Made by a program: the position numbers and the translations under genes
The notes under the pieces: generated by a model
Database searches by the model: none
Told to the model about the DNA's origin: nothing
The model's input: the letters and a program-made list of their open reading frames with translations, nothing else
Virus record (IMG/VR): IMGVR_UViG_3300005253_000051
Coordinates: 17,506-81,505 of that record
Strand: one strand, 5' to 3'
DNA length: 64,000 bases
Origin: a virus
Part shown: positions 8,099-32,292 of the stretch, piece by piece
How the letters are laid out: each line of letters begins with the position of its first letter
Position numbering within the stretch: the first letter of the stretch is position 1

Positions 8099-8317
8099 TC
8101 ACCCCGTATTCACGATTTTCTGTTTCAGCGTCGAGAACCCAATCCCGAGCTTCTTGGCTGCGCGGTCGCGGTTTCCGTCGCTCTTGGCGAGCACAAAGTT
8201 GGTGTAGAATTTCTCGAACGCATGGCGGGCTCGACGCAGATGCCACGGTCGCTTTATCGAGATCAGGGTATTGATCAGCGTGTCCACTTGGGTTTTGAGC
8301 TGTTTTTCTGGTGTCAT
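8099..8317 (-). CDS. Fis-family helix-turn-helix protein
   Basis: FEKFY...LAKSDGNRDRAAKKLGIGFSTLKQKI is a Fis/NtrC-type HTH. Confidence 0.85.
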   Translation of the reverse strand: MTPEKQLKTQVDTLINTLISIKRPWHLRRARHAFEKFYTNFVLAKSDGNRDRAAKKLGIGFSTLKQKIVNTG

Positions 8318-8367: not shown

Positions 8368-9835
8368 GTCGCATCTTGAAAGGCGATGCGCTGCCATTGC
8401 TAGTTCGTCGAGAACTGCGACGAGCCCGTCGCATCTTGAAAGGCGATGCGCTGCCATTGCTACGTCGCGTGCCACGCGCCAGGAGACGAGTTGGTGTGCC
8501 GTCGCATCTTGAAAGGCGATGCGCTGCCATTGCTACCTTCCTCTCGGCCGCGGGGTCGCATCTTGAAAGGCGATGCGCTGCCATTGCTACAGCACGACCA
8601 ACGTCGTTGGTTACGGCACCGACGTGTCGCATCTTGAAAGGCGATGCACTGCCATTGCTACCGCGAGCCATCGGTAAACAGTCGCTCGGCTCACTCCGTC
8701 GCATCTTGAAAGGCGATGCGCTGCCATTGCTACGTGGCCGACGCGGCGAAGATCCTGGGCGTATCCACGTCGCATCTTGAAAGGCGATGCGCTGCCATTG
8801 CTACCTCCTCGATGTAGTCGCATTCGACGACCGAGCACGAAAGGTCGCATCTTGAAAGGCGATGCGCTGCCATTGCTACTAGACGGACCGTCTTCGAGTA
8901 CCCGTGATCCAGTCCGTCGCACCTTGAAAGGCGATGCGCTGCCATTGCTACCCGCGCTGGGATCAATTCCGTGAGGAGATCAGACTCGACGTCGCATCTT
9001 GAAAGGCGATGCGCTGCCATTGCTACAAACCAGCGGCGGCGTTCGCGTTCGCTCCCTCCCCCAGTCGCATCTTGTAAGGCGATGCGCTGCCATTGCTACG
9101 CACCAACAGCGCGACGACTGCGCAGAATGACTGGGAGTCGCATCTTGTAAGGCGATGCGCTGCCATTGCTACAGCATATCCATGGAGGAGCACCCCGAGC
9201 TATCAGCCAAGGTCGCATCTTAAAAGGCGATGCGCTGCCATTGCTACGGATGCGGTGCGTACGGCGATTGCGTGAGACAAAGTGAGTCGCATCTTAAAAG
9301 GCGATGCGCTGCCATTGCTACCGAGCTGGGCGACGGCGAACAGAAAACAATTCTGGTCGTCGCATCTTAAAAGGCGATGCGCTGCCATTGCTACATGCGG
9401 CGCACGCCGGTGAGAACAATGCTTCCGCGACGTCGCATCTTAAAAGGCGATGCGCTGCCATTGCTACAGGCAACCTGGCCCCTAGTGGAGTGGACAATTC
9501 GACTGGTCGCATCTTAAAAGGCGATGCGCTGCCATTGCTACACGATGACATTTTTGCGTGCCCATTCATCTGGTGCGACGTCGCATCTTAAAAGGCGATG
9601 CGCTGCCATTGCTACGGATCGGTGCTCTAGCAATCAGCCCACGCTCTTTCGCGTCGCATCTTAAAAGGCGATGCGCTGCCATTGCTACCGTGAAGCCTAC
9701 TGGCGACAGAGCTATCCGGGCACCGTGTCGCATCTTAAAAGGCGATGCGCTGCCATTGCTACAGCCCTACGTAAACGTGTCGATCTGCGTTGATCTCGCG
9801 TCGCATCTTGAAAGGCGATGCGCTGCCATTGCTAC
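8368..9835 (-). CRISPR. CRISPR array with 21 repeats of 36 bp and 20 spacers (18 of 35-39 bp, plus one of 24 bp and one of 18 bp)
   Basis: Minus-strand repeat GTAGCAATGGCAGCGCATCGCCTTTCAAGATGCGAC with a 3' hairpin CGCATC/GATGCG; unique spacers; co-oriented with the adjacent RuvC gene. Confidence 0.99.
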
Positions 9836-11367
9836 GGCGCCTCTGGATCTTTGTGTTTTTTCGCAAACCTAGGCGTGCTTTTTCGAGTGGTTGGGTTACG
9901 GACGTTTCCGATCGCATACATATTCATCATGTTTTGCGTGCTTACGCGGTCACGATCTTCTACGACACCACAGCCCCCACACGTCACCACGCGCTCGGGC
10001 CCGTAGCTGTTGACGAAGCTGCAAGCCGGGCAATGGTTGGTCGTATCGACCGCACAGACGACGGAAACACCCGTGATGCGGCCAAACACGCGCGTGATCT
10101 CTTCAATCACCTCGCCGGGCGCGGCATGATGACCCTGGCGTCGAGCCGGCTTCGGAAGGCTCGTTTTGTTTTCCTTCATCTTCTTGTGGCAGGAATCCTT
10201 GATGACCGCATGCGCGTAGCGTCGGCGTAGATCACGCAGCCAGACGCGCACGTCGTTGCGCCGCCGGGTGACCGACCGGTTACGACACCCTGCTTCGTAC
10301 TGCCACAAGTGCCGCTCCTTCTTGATCCACTTGGTGTGCTCTCCTGGTTTTGCGACACGTCGAACGCTCAGTGTCGATTTCAGTCGTGCGAAAAGTTTTT
10401 TGTTCGAGAATCCGCAAACGGCCAAAATGACGCTCCAAAAACGCTCTTGTTTTTGTAACTCCACAAGGTTCTGATCACGCGCTGATCGTATCCGATCAGC
10501 TTGATCAGCATGCTTCATCCATTTAGGAGGGAGCACCAACTCGTACTCGGCACCGTCGTCACCACGCGCGTAAGCGATGCGCATGCCGTCGTCGGTCTTA
10601 CGCCAACCGACATCGATAGCGACAGCGCCTCGCTCGGCGTTGTCTTTGCGCTCGGGGATATCGCGGCGCGTGAACTGCACAGACCAGATGACACGATCTG
10701 CGACGTACTTGCGGGCGATCTTGACCCACGTGGCCGTACCTTGAAGGGGACGATGCATCTCGAAAGGTAGTGGCTCGGCCCACACAGGCGCTTGGCCTTT
10801 GGATCCCACACGAAGACGGAGCGTGTAGCGCTGTTGCTTTTTCTTACGAGGATCCGGCGCCGACTTGATCAAGAACATCCGGTCTGGATCCTTGTCGCGC
10901 TGGATTTGGACCGCACACATATCACCCTGGCGCCAGCTGCGGAATTTCACCAGCGAGAAAGATTCAGTCTCTTTCCAAGCCGCCGAAAAGTCTTGTTCGA
11001 TCACAAGATAGGTGCCCCAGTATAGGCCACCTTCGGCCGCTTTCTTGCGGAACGGCTTCACGTCAAGAGGAGGCTCAGAACGGTACTGCTTGCGCAGTGC
11101 CTTGTAATGAGCGCGGCAAACCGGACAGAATTTCTTGCACTCGTGCTTTCGTGGTTTGCGTTTCTTGCTTTCCGCTTTATCACAGGTCGAACAAGATTTT
11201 TTGCACACGTGTGTTGCCGGTGAAGGGGGACGATCCCCGCCCCACATAGTCGTGCGCCTCTCGTTCTCCGCTTCGACGAGACTGTTGTAGTAGACACGGC
11301 CCAGGTTCATTTGGGCACACAAGGTGTCCCCACCGGGGAGTGCTCCGTACTTGTAGACTTTGGTCAT
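9832..11367 (-). CDS. cas12: Compact type V CRISPR effector, Cas12m (V-U1/V-M)-like and TnpB-derived, probably nuclease-inactive
   Basis: N-terminal VYKYG; RuvC-I AIDVGWRKTDDGMRIA; RuvC-II AVIKDS lacking Glu; Zn finger CPAC..CGGC; RuvC-III DRDRVSTQN; directly abuts the CRISPR array. Confidence 0.85.
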   Translation of the reverse strand: MTKVYKYGALPGGDTLCAQMNLGRVYYNSLVEAENERRTTMWGGDRPPSPATHVCKKSCSTCDKAESKKRKPRKHECKKFCPVCRAHYKALRKQYRSEPPLDVKPFRKKAAEGGLYWGTYLVIEQDFSAAWKETESFSLVKFRSWRQGDMCAVQIQRDKDPDRMFLIKSAPDPRKKKQQRYTLRLRVGSKGQAPVWAEPLPFEMHRPLQGTATWVKIARKYVADRVIWSVQFTRRDIPERKDNAERGAVAIDVGWRKTDDGMRIAYARGDDGAEYELVLPPKWMKHADQADRIRSARDQNLVELQKQERFWSVILAVCGFSNKKLFARLKSTLSVRRVAKPGEHTKWIKKERHLWQYEAGCRNRSVTRRRNDVRVWLRDLRRRYAHAVIKDSCHKKMKENKTSLPKPARRQGHHAAPGEVIEEITRVFGRITGVSVVCAVDTTNHCPACSFVNSYGPERVVTCGGCGVVEDRDRVSTQNMMNMYAIGNVRNPTTRKSTPRFAKKHKDPEAP

Positions 11368-11401: not shown

Positions 11402-11613
11402 TCTGAACTGATCTCCTTCCATCGAACAACGACTTCCTCGTCGCCGTCAATTTCCAGGTCCATACCCGACCAATCCCCGCCTCCGGGTACACGCACAAAG
11501 ATCTCCACGCTAGCCGGTAGATCGGTAGCGTAGTGGTCCTTGATGAATTTGATCAGGTCGGCGCGGCCGATTCGAACCGTGTACGTTGATTCTGTTGTCT
11601 TTGTTTTTTCCAT
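11395..11613 (-). CDS. Hypothetical phage protein
   Basis: Co-oriented ORF containing VPGGGDWSGMDL. Confidence 0.6.
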   Translation of the reverse strand: MEKTKTTESTYTVRIGRADLIKFIKDHYATDLPASVEIFVRVPGGGDWSGMDLEIDGDEEVVVRWKEISSDE

Positions 11614-12121
11614 GGGCTTACTCGATCAACCATCCTGCTCGCGCCGGGCACCCATCGCCAACGATGATTTCCCAGCCGTATGTAGGCTCGGGCCGCACCT
11701 CGATAACCTCGGTGCGGTAGTAGCGTTCGCCGGAAAAAAGCAGCCCTCGCACATTCGTGGGCTCTTCTTTGACCACTAGCGCCGTTTGGCCGTCGGCGGG
11801 TGAGTAGGTGGACACGATCATCATTTCGTACGTCCCCAGCGGAAAATGGTTTTCATTTTCGTTGTCTCCTCCAGTAGCGCGTGGCGTGATTGCCGATGCG
11901 CTCCCAGCATTCTTGTGATGGCCCGCGGATGTCTTTGCCGTCGGGTTTCGTCGATGCGATCGCGATCAAGACATCGAGCAACACGCACTCTTCGAGCATG
12001 GTCACCGGCTCGACCCCGAGGCTTCCACAGCGCTGTGACACGTGCTTGATCTGGTTCTCAGGTCCTTGTCGCAGCACGACCGCGAGCGCGACGCCGACAG
12101 CCTTTTCAAGCTCGTGATCGA

Positions 12122-16351: not shown

Positions 16352-17623
16352 TCAACAGCTCCCAATCTCGATGACCCGGGCGCCCTCCGGCACGCTAGCC
16401 CCGTCATAGCCCACGAGCGCCACGACTTTTTGACGAGCACTCGATGGCCACGGAGGCCACACCAAGCCGCCGTCGGTGAGGTGAATCATCACGTCGAAGC
16501 GACCCGCGGCGGCGACCTTCCGGTAAGCGTCTTCGGCGCACGTGCCGCCGCGCCCTCTGAGCGTCTTTTTGATCTCAGCGGGATGGCACTTCGGTGAAAG
16601 CCAGCCCTCCCACTGAACGCCATGATCGTGGGTCACGAGGTAGACCGAGACCCCCGAAGCCTGCGAGATCTTCATCGTCTCAGCGACGAACTGGGACAAC
16701 TCTTCATCCGAAACCGAGCCCGAAGTGTCGATCACGACTGCGGCGCGCGCCGCTGTCGCGTGCCAGCCCGGAAACTGCGCCCCGCGTGCTCGTGAGCGAC
16801 GCCCGCGGCGCGTCCAGGTCTGCGAGTCCCGACCGTGGACCGCGAGCGCAGAAGCCATCCCACGACGCACCACAGCGGCCCAGTTGACGCGAGCTGGCGG
16901 AATGTCGCATATGGTCGCCAGCGCCGCACCCGCGGCGTCGCCGGCTTTGCGCGCCATGGCCTGGGCCTGCGCCGCGATCTTGGACCACTCTTGATCGAGT
17001 TGCGTTTCGCTTTTGGGCTCTTCGCCGTCCTCAGAACCCTCGGGGGGCATGACACCACAGCCGGCGCCGGGGGTAAGGCCGTCGCCGCTCATGGATACCG
17101 AAGGCTTGTCCTGTAAATTCTGAACGATCTGATCGTATATCCGCTCAGCGTGCCAAGTTTCCCACCCGGACTCAGGAAAAATTGCGCCTTTGGAATAACT
17201 CTTGAGCCCCGAGGTCACCAGTGCGTGGTTGATCGCCATGTCCCCGGCGATGTTCCAGACCGAGATCGGCTTTGCGTCAGGATTTGGTTTTCCATCTGGA
17301 AGAGTAGGAGGATACGGTTTCCCATCGGGACCGACGGGGATAACCATCACGGTCCGATTGCCTTGCCGCGCCGCGTGGCGCATTAAAAGATGCATCAGCT
17401 CGTGCGCAATCACCCACTTGAACTGGGCATCGCTGAGTTTTTTGCAAAATGGCGTGTGCAAATAGATGATCCCGTCGGCGGTGACGCCCATGGTATTGAC
17501 CTTGAAACCCACCGCGTCCTCACGAAATCGGACCTTAGCTGCGGGAATCGCGAAAAACGGGGAGTACCAACCCAGGGCGATCGATAGGCGCTTGGCTTTT
17601 TCGACGATTTTGCTCATGGTCAT
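16352..17623 (-). CDS. Metallopeptidase-like plus vWA domain protein (DUF2201-like)
   Basis: HELMH zincin motif, WNIAGDMAIN, MIDAS DTSGS, RGGT and TDG. Confidence 0.9.
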   Translation of the reverse strand: MTMSKIVEKAKRLSIALGWYSPFFAIPAAKVRFREDAVGFKVNTMGVTADGIIYLHTPFCKKLSDAQFKWVIAHELMHLLMRHAARQGNRTVMVIPVGPDGKPYPPTLPDGKPNPDAKPISVWNIAGDMAINHALVTSGLKSYSKGAIFPESGWETWHAERIYDQIVQNLQDKPSVSMSGDGLTPGAGCGVMPPEGSEDGEEPKSETQLDQEWSKIAAQAQAMARKAGDAAGAALATICDIPPARVNWAAVVRRGMASALAVHGRDSQTWTRRGRRSRARGAQFPGWHATAARAAVVIDTSGSVSDEELSQFVAETMKISQASGVSVYLVTHDHGVQWEGWLSPKCHPAEIKKTLRGRGGTCAEDAYRKVAAAGRFDVMIHLTDGGLVWPPWPSSARQKVVALVGYDGASVPEGARVIEIGSC

Positions 17624-18612: not shown

Positions 18613-19179
18613 TCATGTTATTCCTTTGACGAGCTGGCGAGCTAGATCTTCATCACCAGCCACGATTGCTGCGCCCGCGGCTTGACGCAGCTCTTCGTCA
18701 AGATCTTGATCATCGCCGCTGAGATCTCGGACGACCCAGCGCGCGCAGGCCACTTGAATCTCGCTGTTGCAGACGCCAGCACGACCAGCGTGATTGGCAG
18801 CAGCGGCGGCGTAGTGGACGATGCGAGCGGCAGGGGCATAGCGAGCGATGCGAGCGGCAGCGACGTCGGCGGAGACGGCGTAGTAAGCGGGGGTAGCGTA
18901 GACGGCGATGGCGGCGTCTGCGGCGGCGGCGGCACAAGCGGCAACAGCAACGTCGGCGTCGGTGTCGGCATCGTAAACAACATCCTGTGCAGCGTTGGCG
19001 GCTTTGAGCGAGGCGGCGGCAACGCTAAGGGCACCGTTCACACAGCATTCTGCAATCTCGATCGCAACTACGAGATCTGATCGTCGATCACCGCTGTAAA
19101 ACGGCAGCGCCAACCGCGCGCATTCCGCAGCAAATCCAACCGCGTTGTGGGGGTTGCCCCATTCCCGTTCGTAGTTCAT
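18613..19179 (-). CDS. Ala-rich Imm5-like paralog, copy 7
   Basis: MNYEREW..NAVGFAAECARLALPFY and the conserved C-terminus. Confidence 0.8.
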   Translation of the reverse strand: MNYEREWGNPHNAVGFAAECARLALPFYSGDRRSDLVVAIEIAECCVNGALSVAAASLKAANAAQDVVYDADTDADVAVAACAAAAADAAIAVYATPAYYAVSADVAAARIARYAPAARIVHYAAAAANHAGRAGVCNSEIQVACARWVVRDLSGDDQDLDEELRQAAGAAIVAGDEDLARQLVKGIT

Positions 19180-19753
19180 TTACGCCTTGGACGAGCTGGT
19201 GAGCCACTGGCGTAAATCTTCATCAAGATGATCTTCGATGGAGCTGTCCGAAGAGAAGTAAGGGACCTCCTTACCGGACGCGATCGCTATGCCAGCTCGG
19301 ATCGCGCCAGCGATCGCGACCCGTACGCTGTCGTTGAATACTCGAAAATCCCTTCGATCCTGGAAAGGAATGGGGATCTCCCATCGACATTTTGTGTCGT
19401 TGTAGTAGATCTCCAACTTCATGATTTTGCTCATTGGTGTTTTCCTTCAAAAATCAGCTCATTTATCTTGGATTCAGCTTCCTCTCGCGAAAGAAATATC
19501 TCTAGGCGGCCGATGGAGATGCCGTACTCGTTCAGTCGAACGACTTGATATTCAGTTCCACCAAACAACCTATGAGTGACGACCATGAAAATAACCTGTC
19601 GGCCTAACGAGTCGGCGCGCCTCGCTCGGACTCTGAATTCTTGATCAGACTCATCAAACCACCATCGCCTTCGCTTTCGTCGCAGACCGAAGAGGACTAA
19701 CACAAGGTTGTCAAGCCCAGGACCATAGAATAGATCAATCGCGTCGGTCTCCT

Positions 19754-20842
19754 TCACAGACCCATCGCGTTCCCGGCCTTGCCGAGCAAAGTCACCATGG
19801 CTTTTTTGCCCTTCGCCTGAAAGCGCTTTTTCCCGTGCTGCCGGCGGGACATGAGCGCTTTGGCCGCCGATGCGCCGATTTCATCCCGCAGGCGGCTCGC
19901 GTAGATCCACGCCGCCCAGCAATCCGCATCTGCGACGTTGGCCAAAAGCCCGAGCGCGCCTACCTGGTACATCGCGTTGTCCGGCACCTTGGCGCCGTCG
20001 GGGTTGACCACGATCTCGCTGATCGTGGGTAGGTGGATTCGGTACTCGCGGATCCCCATGTAGCTCGCGGCCCCATGCTCACCCACCGAACCCGACAGAA
20101 TCAGGTGAGCGATTTCATCGCCCACGTTCTCACCTGCTTGCGCCCACGCGCACAGCCCGCGTTCCCAGTCGCGCGGCGATGCCCACTTGGCGCCTTCGTT
20201 GACCGCAGCCGGTGGCGGGTCAAACTGGACCATTTCGGGCGCATGCTCAGCCGTCGCGGCGAAATCCTGTGCCAGCGCCCGTAGCGGGCTGTCATCGGCG
20301 CCCAGCTTGTACAAATAACTTTGGAACTCAGACAGTGTAGGTTCGAAGGTGTAGACGGAGAACCGGCCCATGAGCGGCGCACAGGGCTCGGTGCCACCCG
20401 GAGACTGCTCCACGGGGTTGGCGAACGCGATCACACGGGACTCAGGGTGAAGCGTCACATCGCCGAACGTGCGTTCCAGGATGCCGCGGAGTAAAACCGC
20501 CTGAACCGCCGGGGGCGCGGTGAACAGCTCGTCGAGAATCAGCAAGCATGGTTTTTCGGCCGCTTCGCGGATCACGCGCATCGGAATGCGGTCGAACGCA
20601 CCGCCATCGCCCACGACCGGGAATCCGCCGATGTCCGTCGGATCACACGTGGACCCGATGACCGTGACGGCTTCGAGCTGAAAGCCGAGCGCCGCGGAAA
20701 GCTCAGGGACCAGATCATGGCCGAGTGTGGTTTTGCCCACGCCGGGCGAACCGATCAACAGGACGGCTTTGTTCGCGATGAGGTACGGCATAATGACGGG
20801 GAGCGCGGTCGAAAAAGTGAGTTTGGGATACGTGGTGGCCAT
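19754..20842 (-). CDS. MoxR-like AAA+ ATPase
   Basis: Walker A GSPGVGKT, Walker B LILDE, sensor FANP, and SPRDWE. Confidence 0.9.
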   Translation of the reverse strand: MATTYPKLTFSTALPVIMPYLIANKAVLLIGSPGVGKTTLGHDLVPELSAALGFQLEAVTVIGSTCDPTDIGGFPVVGDGGAFDRIPMRVIREAAEKPCLLILDELFTAPPAVQAVLLRGILERTFGDVTLHPESRVIAFANPVEQSPGGTEPCAPLMGRFSVYTFEPTLSEFQSYLYKLGADDSPLRALAQDFAATAEHAPEMVQFDPPPAAVNEGAKWASPRDWERGLCAWAQAGENVGDEIAHLILSGSVGEHGAASYMGIREYRIHLPTISEIVVNPDGAKVPDNAMYQVGALGLLANVADADCWAAWIYASRLRDEIGASAAKALMSRRQHGKKRFQAKGKKAMVTLLGKAGNAMGL

Positions 20843-20917
20843 GGTCTTTGTCCTGGTTTGGGATGCGCTGTGAGATAACTCAGACGGAACCCACCTGATC
20901 AAATTCATGAAAAACAG

Positions 20918-20949
20918 AAAAAGCCCGAAACCACTAAGGGTTCCGGGCT
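20918..20949 (-). terminator. Rho-independent terminator ending the 21-27 kb structural block
   Basis: Minus strand AGCCCGGAACC-loop-GGTTTCGGGCT followed by a T run. Confidence 0.75.
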
Positions 20950-20969
20950 GATCCAGGCTAGAAATCGAA

Positions 20970-21680
20970 CTACACGAACTCCGCAGAAATCTCCGTGTCG
21001 GTATTGCCTCCACCGATGGCGCCCGCTTTCACTCCGATAAAGTCGATGAGATCCCCCATAGAAACAGGCACAGTGGAAACTAGATTACTTGCGCTTCCGA
21101 TAGCTCCAGTAAGCAAAGTCACCGAAGCAGCATCGATCCCGTTCACACGGAGACGGTAGTCAATGGGGCTGCCGTTCCCACCGGCCGCATTGTGTCTAGC
21201 AAAAAACTTCTGGAACACGCCAGGACGAGGCGCATTGAACGTGAAATCACGTGATGAAGACGCATTTCCTTGTCCTCGACCGGGCGTGAGAAAAACTGTT
21301 CCGGGACCCGCTGTCAGGAAATCGTTTCCCCATAAGGCAAGAGCGCTGGTACCCCCACCAGGCCCCGCGCCTCCAGCTTGGTTGAGGATGAATGGCCGAA
21401 CGGAAAGCCCGTCTGGCTGAAAAGCCCCGTTAGCGCCGAACGCCCGTAAAATGGTGTGCAGATGAGCAACCCATACATCGACATTTGGACCTGGAGATGT
21501 CGCAGTGCGGACTACCGTAACGGTTGTTCCGTTCGCTGTAACGACAAACGGCCCGAGTGCCGGGGCGACGAAATCGGGGATGAGGGGGAACCCGTCCTGA
21601 TTCAGATCATGGTCGAGTATTTGGGGGACGCCGACTACCAAACCGGTAAACATCAGCGTCCGATAAAGTCGATTCGCCAT
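20970..21680 (-). CDS. Putative virion spike protein
   Basis: N-terminal domain shared with the three C1q-like paralogs (FTGLVVGVP..H.L..PD.VAP..VDVW...HT..R.FG..QPDG...PFILNQ), followed by a different beta-rich C-terminus. Confidence 0.6.
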   Translation of the reverse strand: MANRLYRTLMFTGLVVGVPQILDHDLNQDGFPLIPDFVAPALGPFVVTANGTTVTVVRTATSPGPNVDVWVAHLHTILRAFGANGAFQPDGLSVRPFILNQAGGAGPGGGTSALALWGNDFLTAGPGTVFLTPGRGQGNASSSRDFTFNAPRPGVFQKFFARHNAAGGNGSPIDYRLRVNGIDAASVTLLTGAIGSASNLVSTVPVSMGDLIDFIGVKAGAIGGGNTDTEISAEFV

Positions 21681-27213: not shown

Positions 27214-28026
27214 TCATAACGTTGTCGTGATGATCACGCACGGAGCATCCCCACGGCCGGCGGGGTCTGAGTTGATCGCGCGCTTTTCGCCCGTAAGTTC
27301 CAAGTGAGCCCACTCGCTGTAGAGATACTGGATCAACTCGGTGTTCGCGTTGTGCGCGATCACTGCGACGCCGCGCTCATGGGCTAGGAAAAGCTCTTCG
27401 GCGAGTCGAGTCTGATCGTCGTCGGAGAACCCCGAGGCGACGTAGTTTACATAGCCGCCATGGTAGGGGGGATCTATGTAGAGCAAGTCGCCGCACTTCG
27501 CCGCGTGGATCGGCTCGACAAAATCTAGTGCTACCAGCGTCGTGCCTTGGAGTACAGTGGCTACTTCCTGGAGGTGTTCGAGGTTCGGAAAAAGCCCCGC
27601 GTCGCGCCGATTCGGATCGCCAAAGGGCACGTTGAATCCCCCGCTTTTGTTCTCGCGGTGCAACCCGTTGAAGCCGGTTTTGTTCAGATAGATAAACCGC
27701 GCTGCACGCTCGATCGAACACGTTGGATCTTGCTCACGGATCCAGCAGTAGTAGTCCTTGGTGATGCAGTTGCCCAGCATATCCAGCATCGTCCTAAGCC
27801 GCTCGCACGGTACATCCCGAACGACGCGGTAGAGGTTCATCAGGTCGTCACAGGCGTCGCTGAGGAACATCTGAGGACGCGCTACAGCCAGCGCCATCGC
27901 GCCGCCGCCGACGAACGGCTCGATATACCGGCCGCCGGTCTTGTCGAGCAACGTTGAGATGCGCGAGCTGAGAACGGGGACAGCCCATGCTTTCCCGCCC
28001 GCCCACTTGAGTAGGGGCTTAGTCAA
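27214..28026 (-). CDS. dam: DNA adenine methyltransferase, Dam/D12 family
   Basis: LKWAGGK, EPFVGGG, YLNKTGFNGL and DPPY. Confidence 0.93.
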   Translation of the reverse strand: MTKPLLKWAGGKAWAVPVLSSRISTLLDKTGGRYIEPFVGGGAMALAVARPQMFLSDACDDLMNLYRVVRDVPCERLRTMLDMLGNCITKDYYCWIREQDPTCSIERAARFIYLNKTGFNGLHRENKSGGFNVPFGDPNRRDAGLFPNLEHLQEVATVLQGTTLVALDFVEPIHAAKCGDLLYIDPPYHGGYVNYVASGFSDDDQTRLAEELFLAHERGVAVIAHNANTELIQYLYSEWAHLELTGEKRAINSDPAGRGDAPCVIITTTL

Positions 28027-28657
28027 GATGTGCCCAACTAATGCCGTTTACGATCCTACTGATTTGTGATCTAGAAACACCGTATTTTTTGGAAAGCGCT
28101 TTCTTGGTCATTGAGTCTTTGGCGTACGCTTTACGAATCATTTTTACTTGGTACTCGTTCAGCTTTTCTCCTGGTTTTGGAATACCTTTATTCTGAAATG
28201 TATTCTGTCCCCAACGAACACCATTTACGATTTTCCTGATCTGCCCTTGGGACACACCATAATTTTCAGCTAGTGCCTTAGCCGTCACTGAACTTTCAGC
28301 GTATGCTTTACGAATCGCCGTTACTTGGTCCCTGCTCAGCTTTTGTGCTGGTATGCCTTTCTTCTGAAAGACATTCCTGCCCTTGTTCCACATGTCGCGG
28401 CTATTATCAGCAGCCGTTCCTAACCACAGGTGATCAGGCCGGACACAGATAGGATTATCGCAGTGATGACATACCATCAGCCCTTCGGGGATTTCCCCGT
28501 AAACTAATTCCCACGACACACGGTGTGCTCTACGTGATGACCATGGCCCTGAACGAACTTGACCGTAGTCGCCCCGAGTCTTAGAGCCAGTCCACAGCCA
28601 GCACTCCCCCGACTTGTCTACCTTGACCCAGAACCGATCAGCTAATGCCCTAGTCAT
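28019..28657 (-). CDS. HNH homing endonuclease with two C-terminal HTH repeats
   Basis: CWLWTG, AHRVSWE, VCHHCDNPICVRPDHL, then two KL...IRKAYA...YGVS...IVNG..W units. Confidence 0.9.
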   Translation of the reverse strand: MTRALADRFWVKVDKSGECWLWTGSKTRGDYGQVRSGPWSSRRAHRVSWELVYGEIPEGLMVCHHCDNPICVRPDHLWLGTAADNSRDMWNKGRNVFQKKGIPAQKLSRDQVTAIRKAYAESSVTAKALAENYGVSQGQIRKIVNGVRWGQNTFQNKGIPKPGEKLNEYQVKMIRKAYAKDSMTKKALSKKYGVSRSQISRIVNGISWAHLD

Positions 28658-30691: not shown

Positions 30692-31099
30692 TCAGTCCTC
30701 TCGAATTCGATCGACTAGATCGTCTAACTCGGTCGGCAACCCCGATGCGGCTATCTCGTCTTCCGTCCACATGAGCGCCATCATGTTCCACAGCACCGCC
30801 GCGCCATGGTCTTCGTCGATCTTGCCCTCGATCCAGTCGGCAAGATGTCGCTCCAGTGACGCGAGCGTGCGCTGAAGGGGGATCCCCTTGCGCCAGTTAT
30901 TGGGGCCGTACTTCTCGGCGCCCGCAGAGTAGAGATCCGCGAGCCGGCGAAGCGGACCGAGCGGAATCAGATCGAAACGCGGCTTGCCGCTTTGCATGTC
31001 GCGCTGGGCGCCGGTTTCAAAGTCCTGGCGCTCGCCGGAGTCCTTGACGACGTACTTATTGCTCTTGCACTTGAGATCGGGTTTGCTCATGATCCCCAT
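30692..31099 (-). CDS. dATP/dGTP diphosphohydrolase-like protein (DUF5664 type)
   Basis: GKPRFDLIP...GAEKYGPNNWRKG...SLERH...EDH..AVLWN. Confidence 0.85.
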   Translation of the reverse strand: MGIMSKPDLKCKSNKYVVKDSGERQDFETGAQRDMQSGKPRFDLIPLGPLRRLADLYSAGAEKYGPNNWRKGIPLQRTLASLERHLADWIEGKIDEDHGAAVLWNMMALMWTEDEIAASGLPTELDDLVDRIRED

Positions 31100-31923
31100 C
31101 CTAATTCGTTAACGAAGCGCTGGACCTTGTCTAGAAATTCATCGGCTTCACGCTCCGTAGGGAAGTCCCCTTTATCCACGGCGGGGACTGATGCCGTAGC
31201 GAGGATCTTTGCGAGTGCCTTGACTTCGTGCCTAGTAAGAAACATCCCGTTGAGCCGGTAGTCCTCGAACGCTTCCCACGCCAGCGGCACGATCGGCTTG
31301 ATTAGTTCAGCCATGGCCTCGGCATAGACGCGGATCTCGTACTGCGCGTGCGAGTCGAGGCGAAGGCTCAGAAAGTGGAACAGGTTGTGAAGATCGATCT
31401 TCCAAATCCACTGCGTGTAGGTCGAGAGCGGCAGGTTGATGCGCGCCAGCTCGCGCGCCATACCGGCTTCGAGGCGGTACTGATAGGCCGAGAACGCATC
31501 GTCACTTTCACGCTTGAACGATTCCGCGTGAAGATCAGCATTAAGTACCGTTTCAGACGCAGAACCTTGCTTGTTATTCTTAGACTGCCGCATCAGTCGA
31601 ATCGACAAAGGCGTATAGGACTCCGCTGGTAGTTCCGAATAGCGTGCACTCATCTCGTTGATGCTGGCCGTACGATGACGCACCCACTGCCGCGCGACGA
31701 AGATCGGCATCTTCGCCCGGAACTTCAGTTCCACCATCTCGAACGGAGTCGTGTGGCGCTTGCGCATGAGGTAGCGGATCAGACCGCGGTTCTCTTGCAC
31801 GGGTCTCACGTTCTCACCCGCGATGGATACGCGAGCGGCATCAATGATCGCTTGATCGTCGCCCATGACGTCCACTAACTCGACGAAGCCGTGGTGGTCA
31901 AGAACGTCAATTCGTTTGGTCAT
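31087..31923 (-). CDS. thyX: Flavin-dependent thymidylate synthase
   Basis: AARVS, HTTPFE, signature RHRTASINEMSARY, and LRLDSHAQYEIR. Confidence 0.97.
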   Translation of the reverse strand: MTKRIDVLDHHGFVELVDVMGDDQAIIDAARVSIAGENVRPVQENRGLIRYLMRKRHTTPFEMVELKFRAKMPIFVARQWVRHRTASINEMSARYSELPAESYTPLSIRLMRQSKNNKQGSASETVLNADLHAESFKRESDDAFSAYQYRLEAGMARELARINLPLSTYTQWIWKIDLHNLFHFLSLRLDSHAQYEIRVYAEAMAELIKPIVPLAWEAFEDYRLNGMFLTRHEVKALAKILATASVPAVDKGDFPTEREADEFLDKVQRFVNELGWGS

Positions 31924-32292
31924 GCTGTGTTTTCTCCAGCGGGATAGCGTTAATAGAGCCGAACTTGTCCACCAAGAATTTGCTAAGTGTGAGACCAAAG
32001 CCGTCGCAGATGCTGCATTCGTAATCACCGCGGAGCAAAACTAATCCCCACCCATCCGGCATTGGAACCCGCACCAGCTTAAAATCACGCCTGAGAGGAA
32101 GGCTTATATCGATAGTTCTGTGTTGCTCGAACTCGAACAACATCACCACCCATCCATCGCTTTCGCCCTGCACTATGCGTATTCTAAAACCCATTTGGAT
32201 TTGGTTTTTGAACACGCTGCGAGTCCAAGTCCACTCAGCATCAAAAAGAGCCTTGGCGAATTGCACTTGCAAATTGTCAGTGGTCATCCGAT

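Follow-up and report, generated by a model that had tools for sequence, protein, structure and literature searches.

Cas12m, the effector of type V-M CRISPR systems, is described as binding DNA under the guidance of a crRNA alone, blocking transcription or replication without cutting, and processing its crRNA independently of the RuvC site (PMC11013384). Silencing by Cas12m is also reported in PMC10442227, where the Cas12m2 crRNA is depicted with a stem and a pseudoknot, and where Cas12m clades are defined by their RuvC triads (HEK/HQK, HDD, DED/NED, and DED/DND/NED); a preprint gives the triad of PmCas12m as NDD (10.64898/2026.03.26.714355). These systems are known from plasmids and from some prophages, according to a review (PMC11656645). 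As for arrays carried by viruses, a 2020 survey of huge phages described some directed against host sigma-70 and against regulatory genes of other phages, together with effectors lacking a catalytic residue (PMC7162821), and a preprint on myxophage MV-1 presents MvCas12m as the first Cas12m in a phage (10.64898/2026.09.14.751636).

Here we describe a locus of this general kind in IMG/VR record IMGVR_UViG_3300005253_000051, a viral genome of 81,505 bp with direct terminal repeats that is rated complete. The window, i.e., the whole stretch of 64,000 nt that was analysed, spans bases 17506–81505 of this record, and all coordinates below refer to the window unless stated otherwise. Our preferred explanation, to which we assign a probability of roughly 0.6 as a whole, is that the virus carries its own type V-M-like locus, composed of a compact Cas12m-family protein followed by a 20-spacer array, that spacers 5 and 6 were derived from DNA encoding helix-turn-helix (HTH) domains, and that the guides would bring about binding of foreign DNA without cutting.

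The locus resembles described type V-M systems (Cas12m, Cas12m2, GoCas12m, and PmCas12m) in the sequence and fold family of its effector, in a predicted crRNA without anti-repeat, in a 3′ stem and pseudoknot within the repeat (as depicted in PMC10442227), in an effector gene located beside the array with no Cas1, in a non-canonical RuvC triad, and in its carriage by a mobile element (cf. PMC11656645). It differs from them in effector size (about 500 aa in the clade found here vs. 577–614 aa for solved type V-M chains), in its triad (D-K-D, with a lysine at RuvC-II, vs. the published triads cited above), and in its carrier, a virus instead of a plasmid or chromosome. D-K-D is not named in the parts of the Cas12m literature used for this comparison, and a full-text search combining “Cas12m” and “DKD” returned no paper. 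This lysine triad and the small size are variant features within Cas12m.

MvCas12m, as presented in its preprint, is likewise encoded by a virus, with an adjoining array, no cas1, cas2, or cas4, no tracrRNA, and no protospacers for its spacers, but it is a 610-aa protein with a DED triad and 8 spacers, compared to 511 aa, DKD, and 20 spacers here. Its claim to be the first in a phage also contrasts with the 17 IMG/VR loci in which we detected genes for proteins related to this effector; an array is present at 14 of these loci. The systems of huge phages (PMC7162821) share with this locus a virus-borne array and an effector lacking a catalytic residue, for which silencing was proposed over cutting; their targets, however, are presented as coming from spacer matches, whereas here the link to a type of target comes from the reading of two spacers.

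The effector and its genomic surroundings

The effector gene (9832–11367, minus strand) encodes a 511-aa protein in which alignments identify D252 at RuvC-I, K390 at RuvC-II, where lysine replaces glutamate, and D473 at RuvC-III, along with a zinc ribbon (C446/C449/C463/C466). Individual comparison to Pfam yielded only Cas12f1-like_TNB, below the cut-off. A search across 1.84 billion representatives recovered 2321 relatives at E ≤ 1e-3, including a close clade with 41–56% identity and lengths of 470–530 aa, as well as more distant members of 550–650 aa. When compared to solved Cas12m chains, the profile built from this family obtained E-values of 4.1e-105 and 5e-66, and the effector alone matched both Cas12m (23vw_A, E 1.3e-15) and Cas12m2 (8hio_A, E 4.1e-9) in the PDB. 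By sequence, the effector belongs to the Cas12m family. An AlphaFold2 model (pLDDT 83.6) is consistent with this assignment: the first four Foldseek ranks were occupied by Cas12m2 and Cas12m structures (8hhl, 8hio, 8hhm, and 8pm4; E 5e-21 to 5e-19, TM 0.5–0.57), with TnpB and Cas12f ranked below, and the modelled protein has the Cas12m fold. No close relatives of the effector were found in the genome collection.

None of the 13 close-clade members departs from this lysine at RuvC-II. Across 147 family representatives, DED was the most frequent triad (98), followed by DKD (16), NDD (7), NED (6), and rarer others, and the 16 DKD carriers (P0002–P0014, P0062, P0111, and P0115), which include all 13 close relatives, are compact proteins of about 470–530 aa. 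An aspartate directly follows the lysine in 10 of the 13 close-clade members, and this neighbouring residue might substitute for the missing glutamate. K390 fits a DNA binder or silencer rather than a cutter, with the presumed loss of cutting deduced from this one residue, and the lysine may not be decisive, because published Cas12m proteins with an intact DED also fail to cut. By analogy with characterised Cas12m, guides of this locus most likely direct binding and not cutting. The preliminary description of this DNA, made from the letters of the window, had suggested that targeting of DNA-binding regulator genes by the array would suit a silencing effector, and the idea of silencing agrees with what adjoins the array, namely a Cas12m-family protein with a lysine at RuvC-II and thus a predicted binder or silencer.

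No Cas1 and no adaptation gene was found in the 81.5-kb genome, no tRNA gene was found within the window, and a promoter scan came back empty. A ThyX gene (31087–32028, minus strand) encodes a protein with 50–60% identity to ThyX mostly from Kapabacteria, Ignavibacteria, and Bacteroidota MAGs, which is a weak hint that the host lineage may lie near these groups. Other genes on the minus strand encode a fusion of an HNH endonuclease with HTH_3 and with segments like sigma-70 region 4 (28019–28657), a Dam-type methyltransferase (27214–28026), and a DUF2201 metallopeptidase/VWA protein (16352–17623) with an AAA_5 ATPase nearby (19754–21013). Directly downstream of the array and on the same strand lies a gene for a 72-aa Fis-type HTH_8 protein (8099–8317, minus strand). 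We considered whether a small HTH gene is a conserved neighbour behind such arrays and rejected this idea, as HTH matches were obtained for only 2 of 64 downstream ORFs across 20 loci.

Two short similarities between spacers from other loci and this genome were also recorded. A word of 14–15 nt common to spacers 14 and 19 of a distant relative's array (locus L016) recurs four times in the virus, at 9467–9481, 9961–9974, 17348–17362, and 19012–19026 in full-record coordinates, the last of which corresponds to 1507–1521 of the window; this recurrence suggests that the viral genome contains a brief motif in several copies, and as targeting it is probably due to chance. Separately, a spacer from metagenome locus L078 matches 27 of 30 bases, in several registers, at 19682–19730 of the record (2177–2225 of the window), and this match is to low-complexity tandem-repeat DNA and is not a convincing protospacer.

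The CRISPR array and its predicted guides

In our repeat/spacer table, the array (8368–9835, minus strand) consists of a 36-nt repeat that occurs 21 times and separates 20 spacers of 18–39 nt. It begins at the stop codon of the effector gene, which overlaps the first repeat (9800–9835). The three variants of the repeat differ at a single position, located in the loop of the predicted hairpin. At the opposite end of the array, the repeat copy at 8368 is degenerate, its end base being altered, and spacers 1 and 3, located there, are the shortest of all (24 and 18 nt), so that 8368 marks the old end of the array. Contigs from two sediment runs match this region up to 8355, after which about 42 unrelated bases replace the last repeat (8355/8356); populations thus vary at the old end of the array or in the sequence flanking it.

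The arrangement of effector and array is shared with relatives. At 14 of the 17 IMG/VR loci encoding related effectors, the gene is followed immediately by an array in the same orientation, two more of these loci contain a two-repeat unit, and array extraction likewise succeeded for many of 55 metagenome loci. Thirty distinct repeats were aligned in the orientation of the effector (8428–8463 on the minus strand, along with repeats from loci L002–L089) and scored for covariation. The 6-bp stem adjacent to the spacer was paired in 92.8% of cells, with six out of six pairs changed on both sides, and a pseudoknot helix, in which the 5′ side of the loop pairs with the segment upstream of the stem, was paired in 73% of cells, with all five pairs changed on both sides. 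The resulting score of 0.678, compared to 0.216 for shuffled alignments (0/500 reach 0.678) and 0.10–0.20 for slid partners, is somewhat flattered by the derivation of the structure from the same sequences as those scored. Across Cas12m-like arrays from viruses and metagenomes, almost every repeat has GAC as its last three bases ahead of the spacer.

Based on the layout of the relatives and on the covariation of stem and pseudoknot on that strand, the guides are minus-strand RNAs, i.e., of the same strand as the effector gene. The array would be transcribed together with the effector gene, and each crRNA would retain the 3′ part of the repeat, including the 6-bp stem and the pseudoknot, before its guide. 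Allowing as many as 8 mismatches, the 81.5-kb genome yielded no reverse-complement copy of the repeat, hence there is no anti-repeat in this genome, and an Rfam search gave no match. Together with the predicted stem and pseudoknot of the repeat, this is consistent with putative guidance by the crRNA alone, with no tracrRNA.

Helix-turn-helix readings of spacers 5 and 6

Spacer 5 (8662–8697, 36 nt) reads as GVSRATVYRWLA on the minus strand (reverse complement, frame 0), and spacer 6 (8734–8768, 35 nt) reads as VADAAKILGVS on the plus strand (frame 0). The preliminary description had given these positions, strands, and peptides exactly, and it had further noted that both peptides look like parts of HTH domains, a likeness that probably extends beyond chance when considering the placement of Pfam matches, the clean control frames, the peptide patterns, and the comparison with 278 spacers of related arrays. 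Since the crRNA strand is the minus strand, the guide from spacer 5 corresponds to the sense of its HTH reading, and the guide from spacer 6 to the antisense.

In-frame translations, including the flanking residues derived from the repeats, were scanned against Pfam at a lax threshold. For spacer 5, eight of nine weak matches were to HTH families (HTH_23, E 0.016, and HTH_29, HTH_7, YfeC-like, HTH_17, HTH_22, HTH_Tnp_IS630, and HTH_28), with E-values of 0.016–0.21 that all remained below the cut-off. Six of these eight HTH matches were confined to spacer-coded residues 13–23/24, and the other two began in the flank and ended there. For spacer 6, the matches, also below the cut-off, were to RWP-RK, HTH_17 (E 0.048, profile positions 4–21), Itf52_C, and HTH_AraC. 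Peptides of 11–12 residues are too short to reach the cut-off of any family. As a control, the scan was repeated on 15 translated ORFs that cross the array in different frames, and their sole HTH match was again to spacer 5, with HTH_23 at residues 76–86 of 8611–8922 (minus strand).

Regular expressions for HTH-like peptides, written after the two peptides had been seen, had background frequencies of 9.5e-5 and 5.6e-4 on random 36-mers of the same viral DNA. No other spacer matched among 131, and a set of 278 unique spacers from related arrays contributed one extra match, weak and not HTH-like. HTH-like spacers thus amount to 2 of the 20 in this array and to none of the 258 other unique spacers of related arrays, which gives no indication of a preference for HTH genes in this family of arrays. 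Codon usage was a poor guide to the reading frame (36% accuracy): it chose the HTH frame for spacer 6 and was uninformative for spacer 5, for which a different frame scored best, at 0.5. In one sediment run, spacer 6 carries an A>G change at 8763 that leaves the peptide of the HTH frame unaltered. As one change would be silent in about one case out of four (an estimate, not a computed value), this is to be taken only as a hint.

These observations bear on the simplest alternative, namely that the spacers come from arbitrary DNA and that their HTH readings are the best of six frames over 20 spacers. The peptides are merely 11–12 residues long, every family match lies below its cut-off, the patterns were picked after the fact, two bacterial genomes encode non-HTH proteins that contain “VADAAK”, and any of four loose patterns would be expected in about 2 of 278 spacers. 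However, the stricter pattern has a background of only 9.5e-5 per 36-mer, the two spacers are adjacent, each matches two patterns, both map to adjoining parts of one profile, and the frame control yielded no HTH match elsewhere. The core of the spacer 5 peptide, moreover, sits inside genuine HTH domains of other proteins (see below). On balance, a chance resemblance seems unlikely, and the two spacers were likely both copied from HTH-coding DNA.

A peptide-pattern search, in which the 103-aa ORF of the array served as query and SRATVYRW was among the patterns, retrieved one IMG/VR locus and at least four genome loci, all of them encoding HTH proteins. Among the five matches listed, GVSRATVYRW, the 10-residue core of spacer 5, is present in three and VSRATVYRW in the other two, and in all five proteins the core peptide lies within the HTH, these being two TetR-like proteins from Lentzea, in which the exact 10-residue core is found, and three phage-like proteins with an N-terminal HTH. 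We take the latter three, going by the motif, to resemble the N-terminal HTH of small terminases; the one support for this label is the Terminase_5 and Phage_terminase matches of the L009 protein discussed below. All five loci were rejected as protospacers, because just 20–24 of 36 bases match spacer 5.

When placed on the HTH_17 profile, the stretch with spacer 6 covers positions 4–21 and the residues of spacer 5 cover positions 12–22, such that the two spacers represent overlapping parts of one motif and have the residues G-V-S in common. The DNA of these G-V-S codons differs at 6 of 11 bases, so a single site of origin is excluded; the sources could be a pair of homologous genes, or one gene with two HTH repeats. 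In our preferred explanation, spacers 5 and 6 would have been acquired consecutively from DNA encoding domains of the HTH_23/HTH_17 kind, with spacer 6 running from helix 2 to the turn and spacer 5 from the turn to the recognition helix, in different sequences and on opposite strands.

A gene with repeated HTH domains was encountered beside one related array. At 11432–11959 (plus strand) of locus L009, 0.8 kb behind the array of a distant relative and followed by an RtcB-like gene, a 175-aa protein contains three tandem HTH_23 repeats and also matches Terminase_5. Its third repeat is identical to the spacer peptides at 7 of 12 and 6 of 11 residues. Genes with multiple HTH repeats therefore exist in these viruses.

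As to the type of gene from which the spacers were taken, candidates could include a regulator, an excisionase, a transposase, a resolvase, or a small terminase. The preliminary description had called such peptides typical of resolvases, transposases, excisionases, and small regulators; the best family matches here include HTH families of transposase, resolvase, and homeodomain-like type, and peptides of this type are also found in HTH domains resembling those of terminase small subunits. Since the same type of peptide is found both in TetR-type regulators and in small-terminase-like HTH proteins of phages, “regulator” is one option among others.

Searches for targets and possible roles

No protospacer was found for any spacer across the phage, plasmid, viral, bacterial-genome, and sediment-run searches made. 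The spacer search that the preliminary description had proposed, here of the whole array against phage, plasmid, and bacterial collections, likewise returned none. Specifically, blastn with 11-base words, which reaches about 5 mismatches per spacer, left the array unmatched in both a set of 50,697 phage records and one of 72,556 plasmids, and an exact search of IMG/VR with spacers 5 and 6 gave 0 and 0 matches. Comparing the 20 spacers to the 81.5-kb genome itself (blastn-short) revealed just chance matches of 13–19 nt. Among 5 + 401 bacterial genomes around one of those with ThyX relatives, 9 had matches at E ≤ 0.01, and the 8 matches inspected were partial, at most 32 nt long, and in 5 cases extended into repeat sequence, i.e., were at chance level. 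Finally, in four marine-sediment runs, which belong to three studies, the array itself was recovered as repeat-spacer-repeat pieces with spacers 2, 6, 7, 10, 11, 18, 19, and 20, and no spacer-only pieces were found in these four runs. The PAM of type V-M systems is 5′ T-rich (TTN/YTN). If a Leu precedes the Gly in the target HTH, as is common in this motif, its codon in front of spacer 5 would provide a YTN PAM.

Virus-borne mini-arrays have been reported to act in conflicts between related viruses (review PMC11656645), which raises the question of whether the spacers are aimed at close kin of this virus, with the HTH genes being genes of these relatives. Yet portoglobovirus-type arrays include spacers matching related viruses, whereas the whole array compared here to 10 viral records with related effectors produced only short matches at chance level (E 0.026 or worse), and no cross-targeting was detected between the 278 spacers of related arrays and either the collected loci or this virus. 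This comparison extends no closer than viruses with related effectors, given that the DNA polymerase of the virus has no close relative in IMG/VR. None of the virus's own genes encodes the peptides of spacers 5 and 6. We consider a conflict among kin very unlikely as the origin of these spacers.

A different proposal is that the array is a specialised silencer, selected for guides against HTH regulators of rivals or of the host (repressors, excisionases, and sigma- or TetR-type regulators) and acting by rewiring regulation. Several features point in this direction, including the location of two adjacent spacers on the same small motif, an effector that looks non-cutting, the occurrence of the exact 10-residue core in TetR-like regulators of Lentzea, and the precedent described in PMC7162821, where phage spacers were directed at sigma-70 of the host and at regulatory genes belonging to other phages. 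Such a specialisation is nonetheless hard to reconcile with HTH-like readings in just 2 of the 20 spacers here and 0 of 258 others, with HTH families of transposase, resolvase, and terminase-like type that fit the peptides equally well, with the lack of a target in the collections searched, and with the virus's own HTH genes, which remain unmatched, and we regard it as distinctly improbable. Of the corresponding statement in the preliminary description, that the array targets genes for DNA-binding regulators, the two HTH-like spacers stand, while no protospacer and no array-wide preference for HTH genes were found. The boldest version, which we hold to be a long shot, would have the lysine-substituted Cas12m of the virus silence HTH master regulators (a repressor, excisionase, or Cro-like switch) of rival prophages or plasmids in its host, using guides on both strands against the most conserved part of the gene, with one family of guides giving access to many alleles.

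The explanation we prefer, that of a virus-borne type V-M-like locus with two HTH-derived spacers, asks less of the array. Its crRNAs would lead the effector to foreign DNA, where transcription or replication would be blocked with no cutting, and the target would most likely be another mobile element in the same host.

The significance of these results lies mostly in the locus and less in the two spacers, whose reading is a plausible but unproven hint. The locus adds a well-documented case of a virus-borne type V-M locus, along with evidence that arrays are found beside relatives of its effector, both in viral records and in metagenomes. Its compact clade of about 500 aa, with a lysine at RuvC-II, may also interest engineers of small DNA binders. 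If targets were found, they would show what a virus silences by means of a CRISPR effector that does not cut, and whether guides land preferentially on conserved DNA-binding motifs. Should the regulator-silencing reading prove true, the virus would be taking control of the regulatory switch of a competitor in a programmable manner, and not destroying the competitor's DNA.
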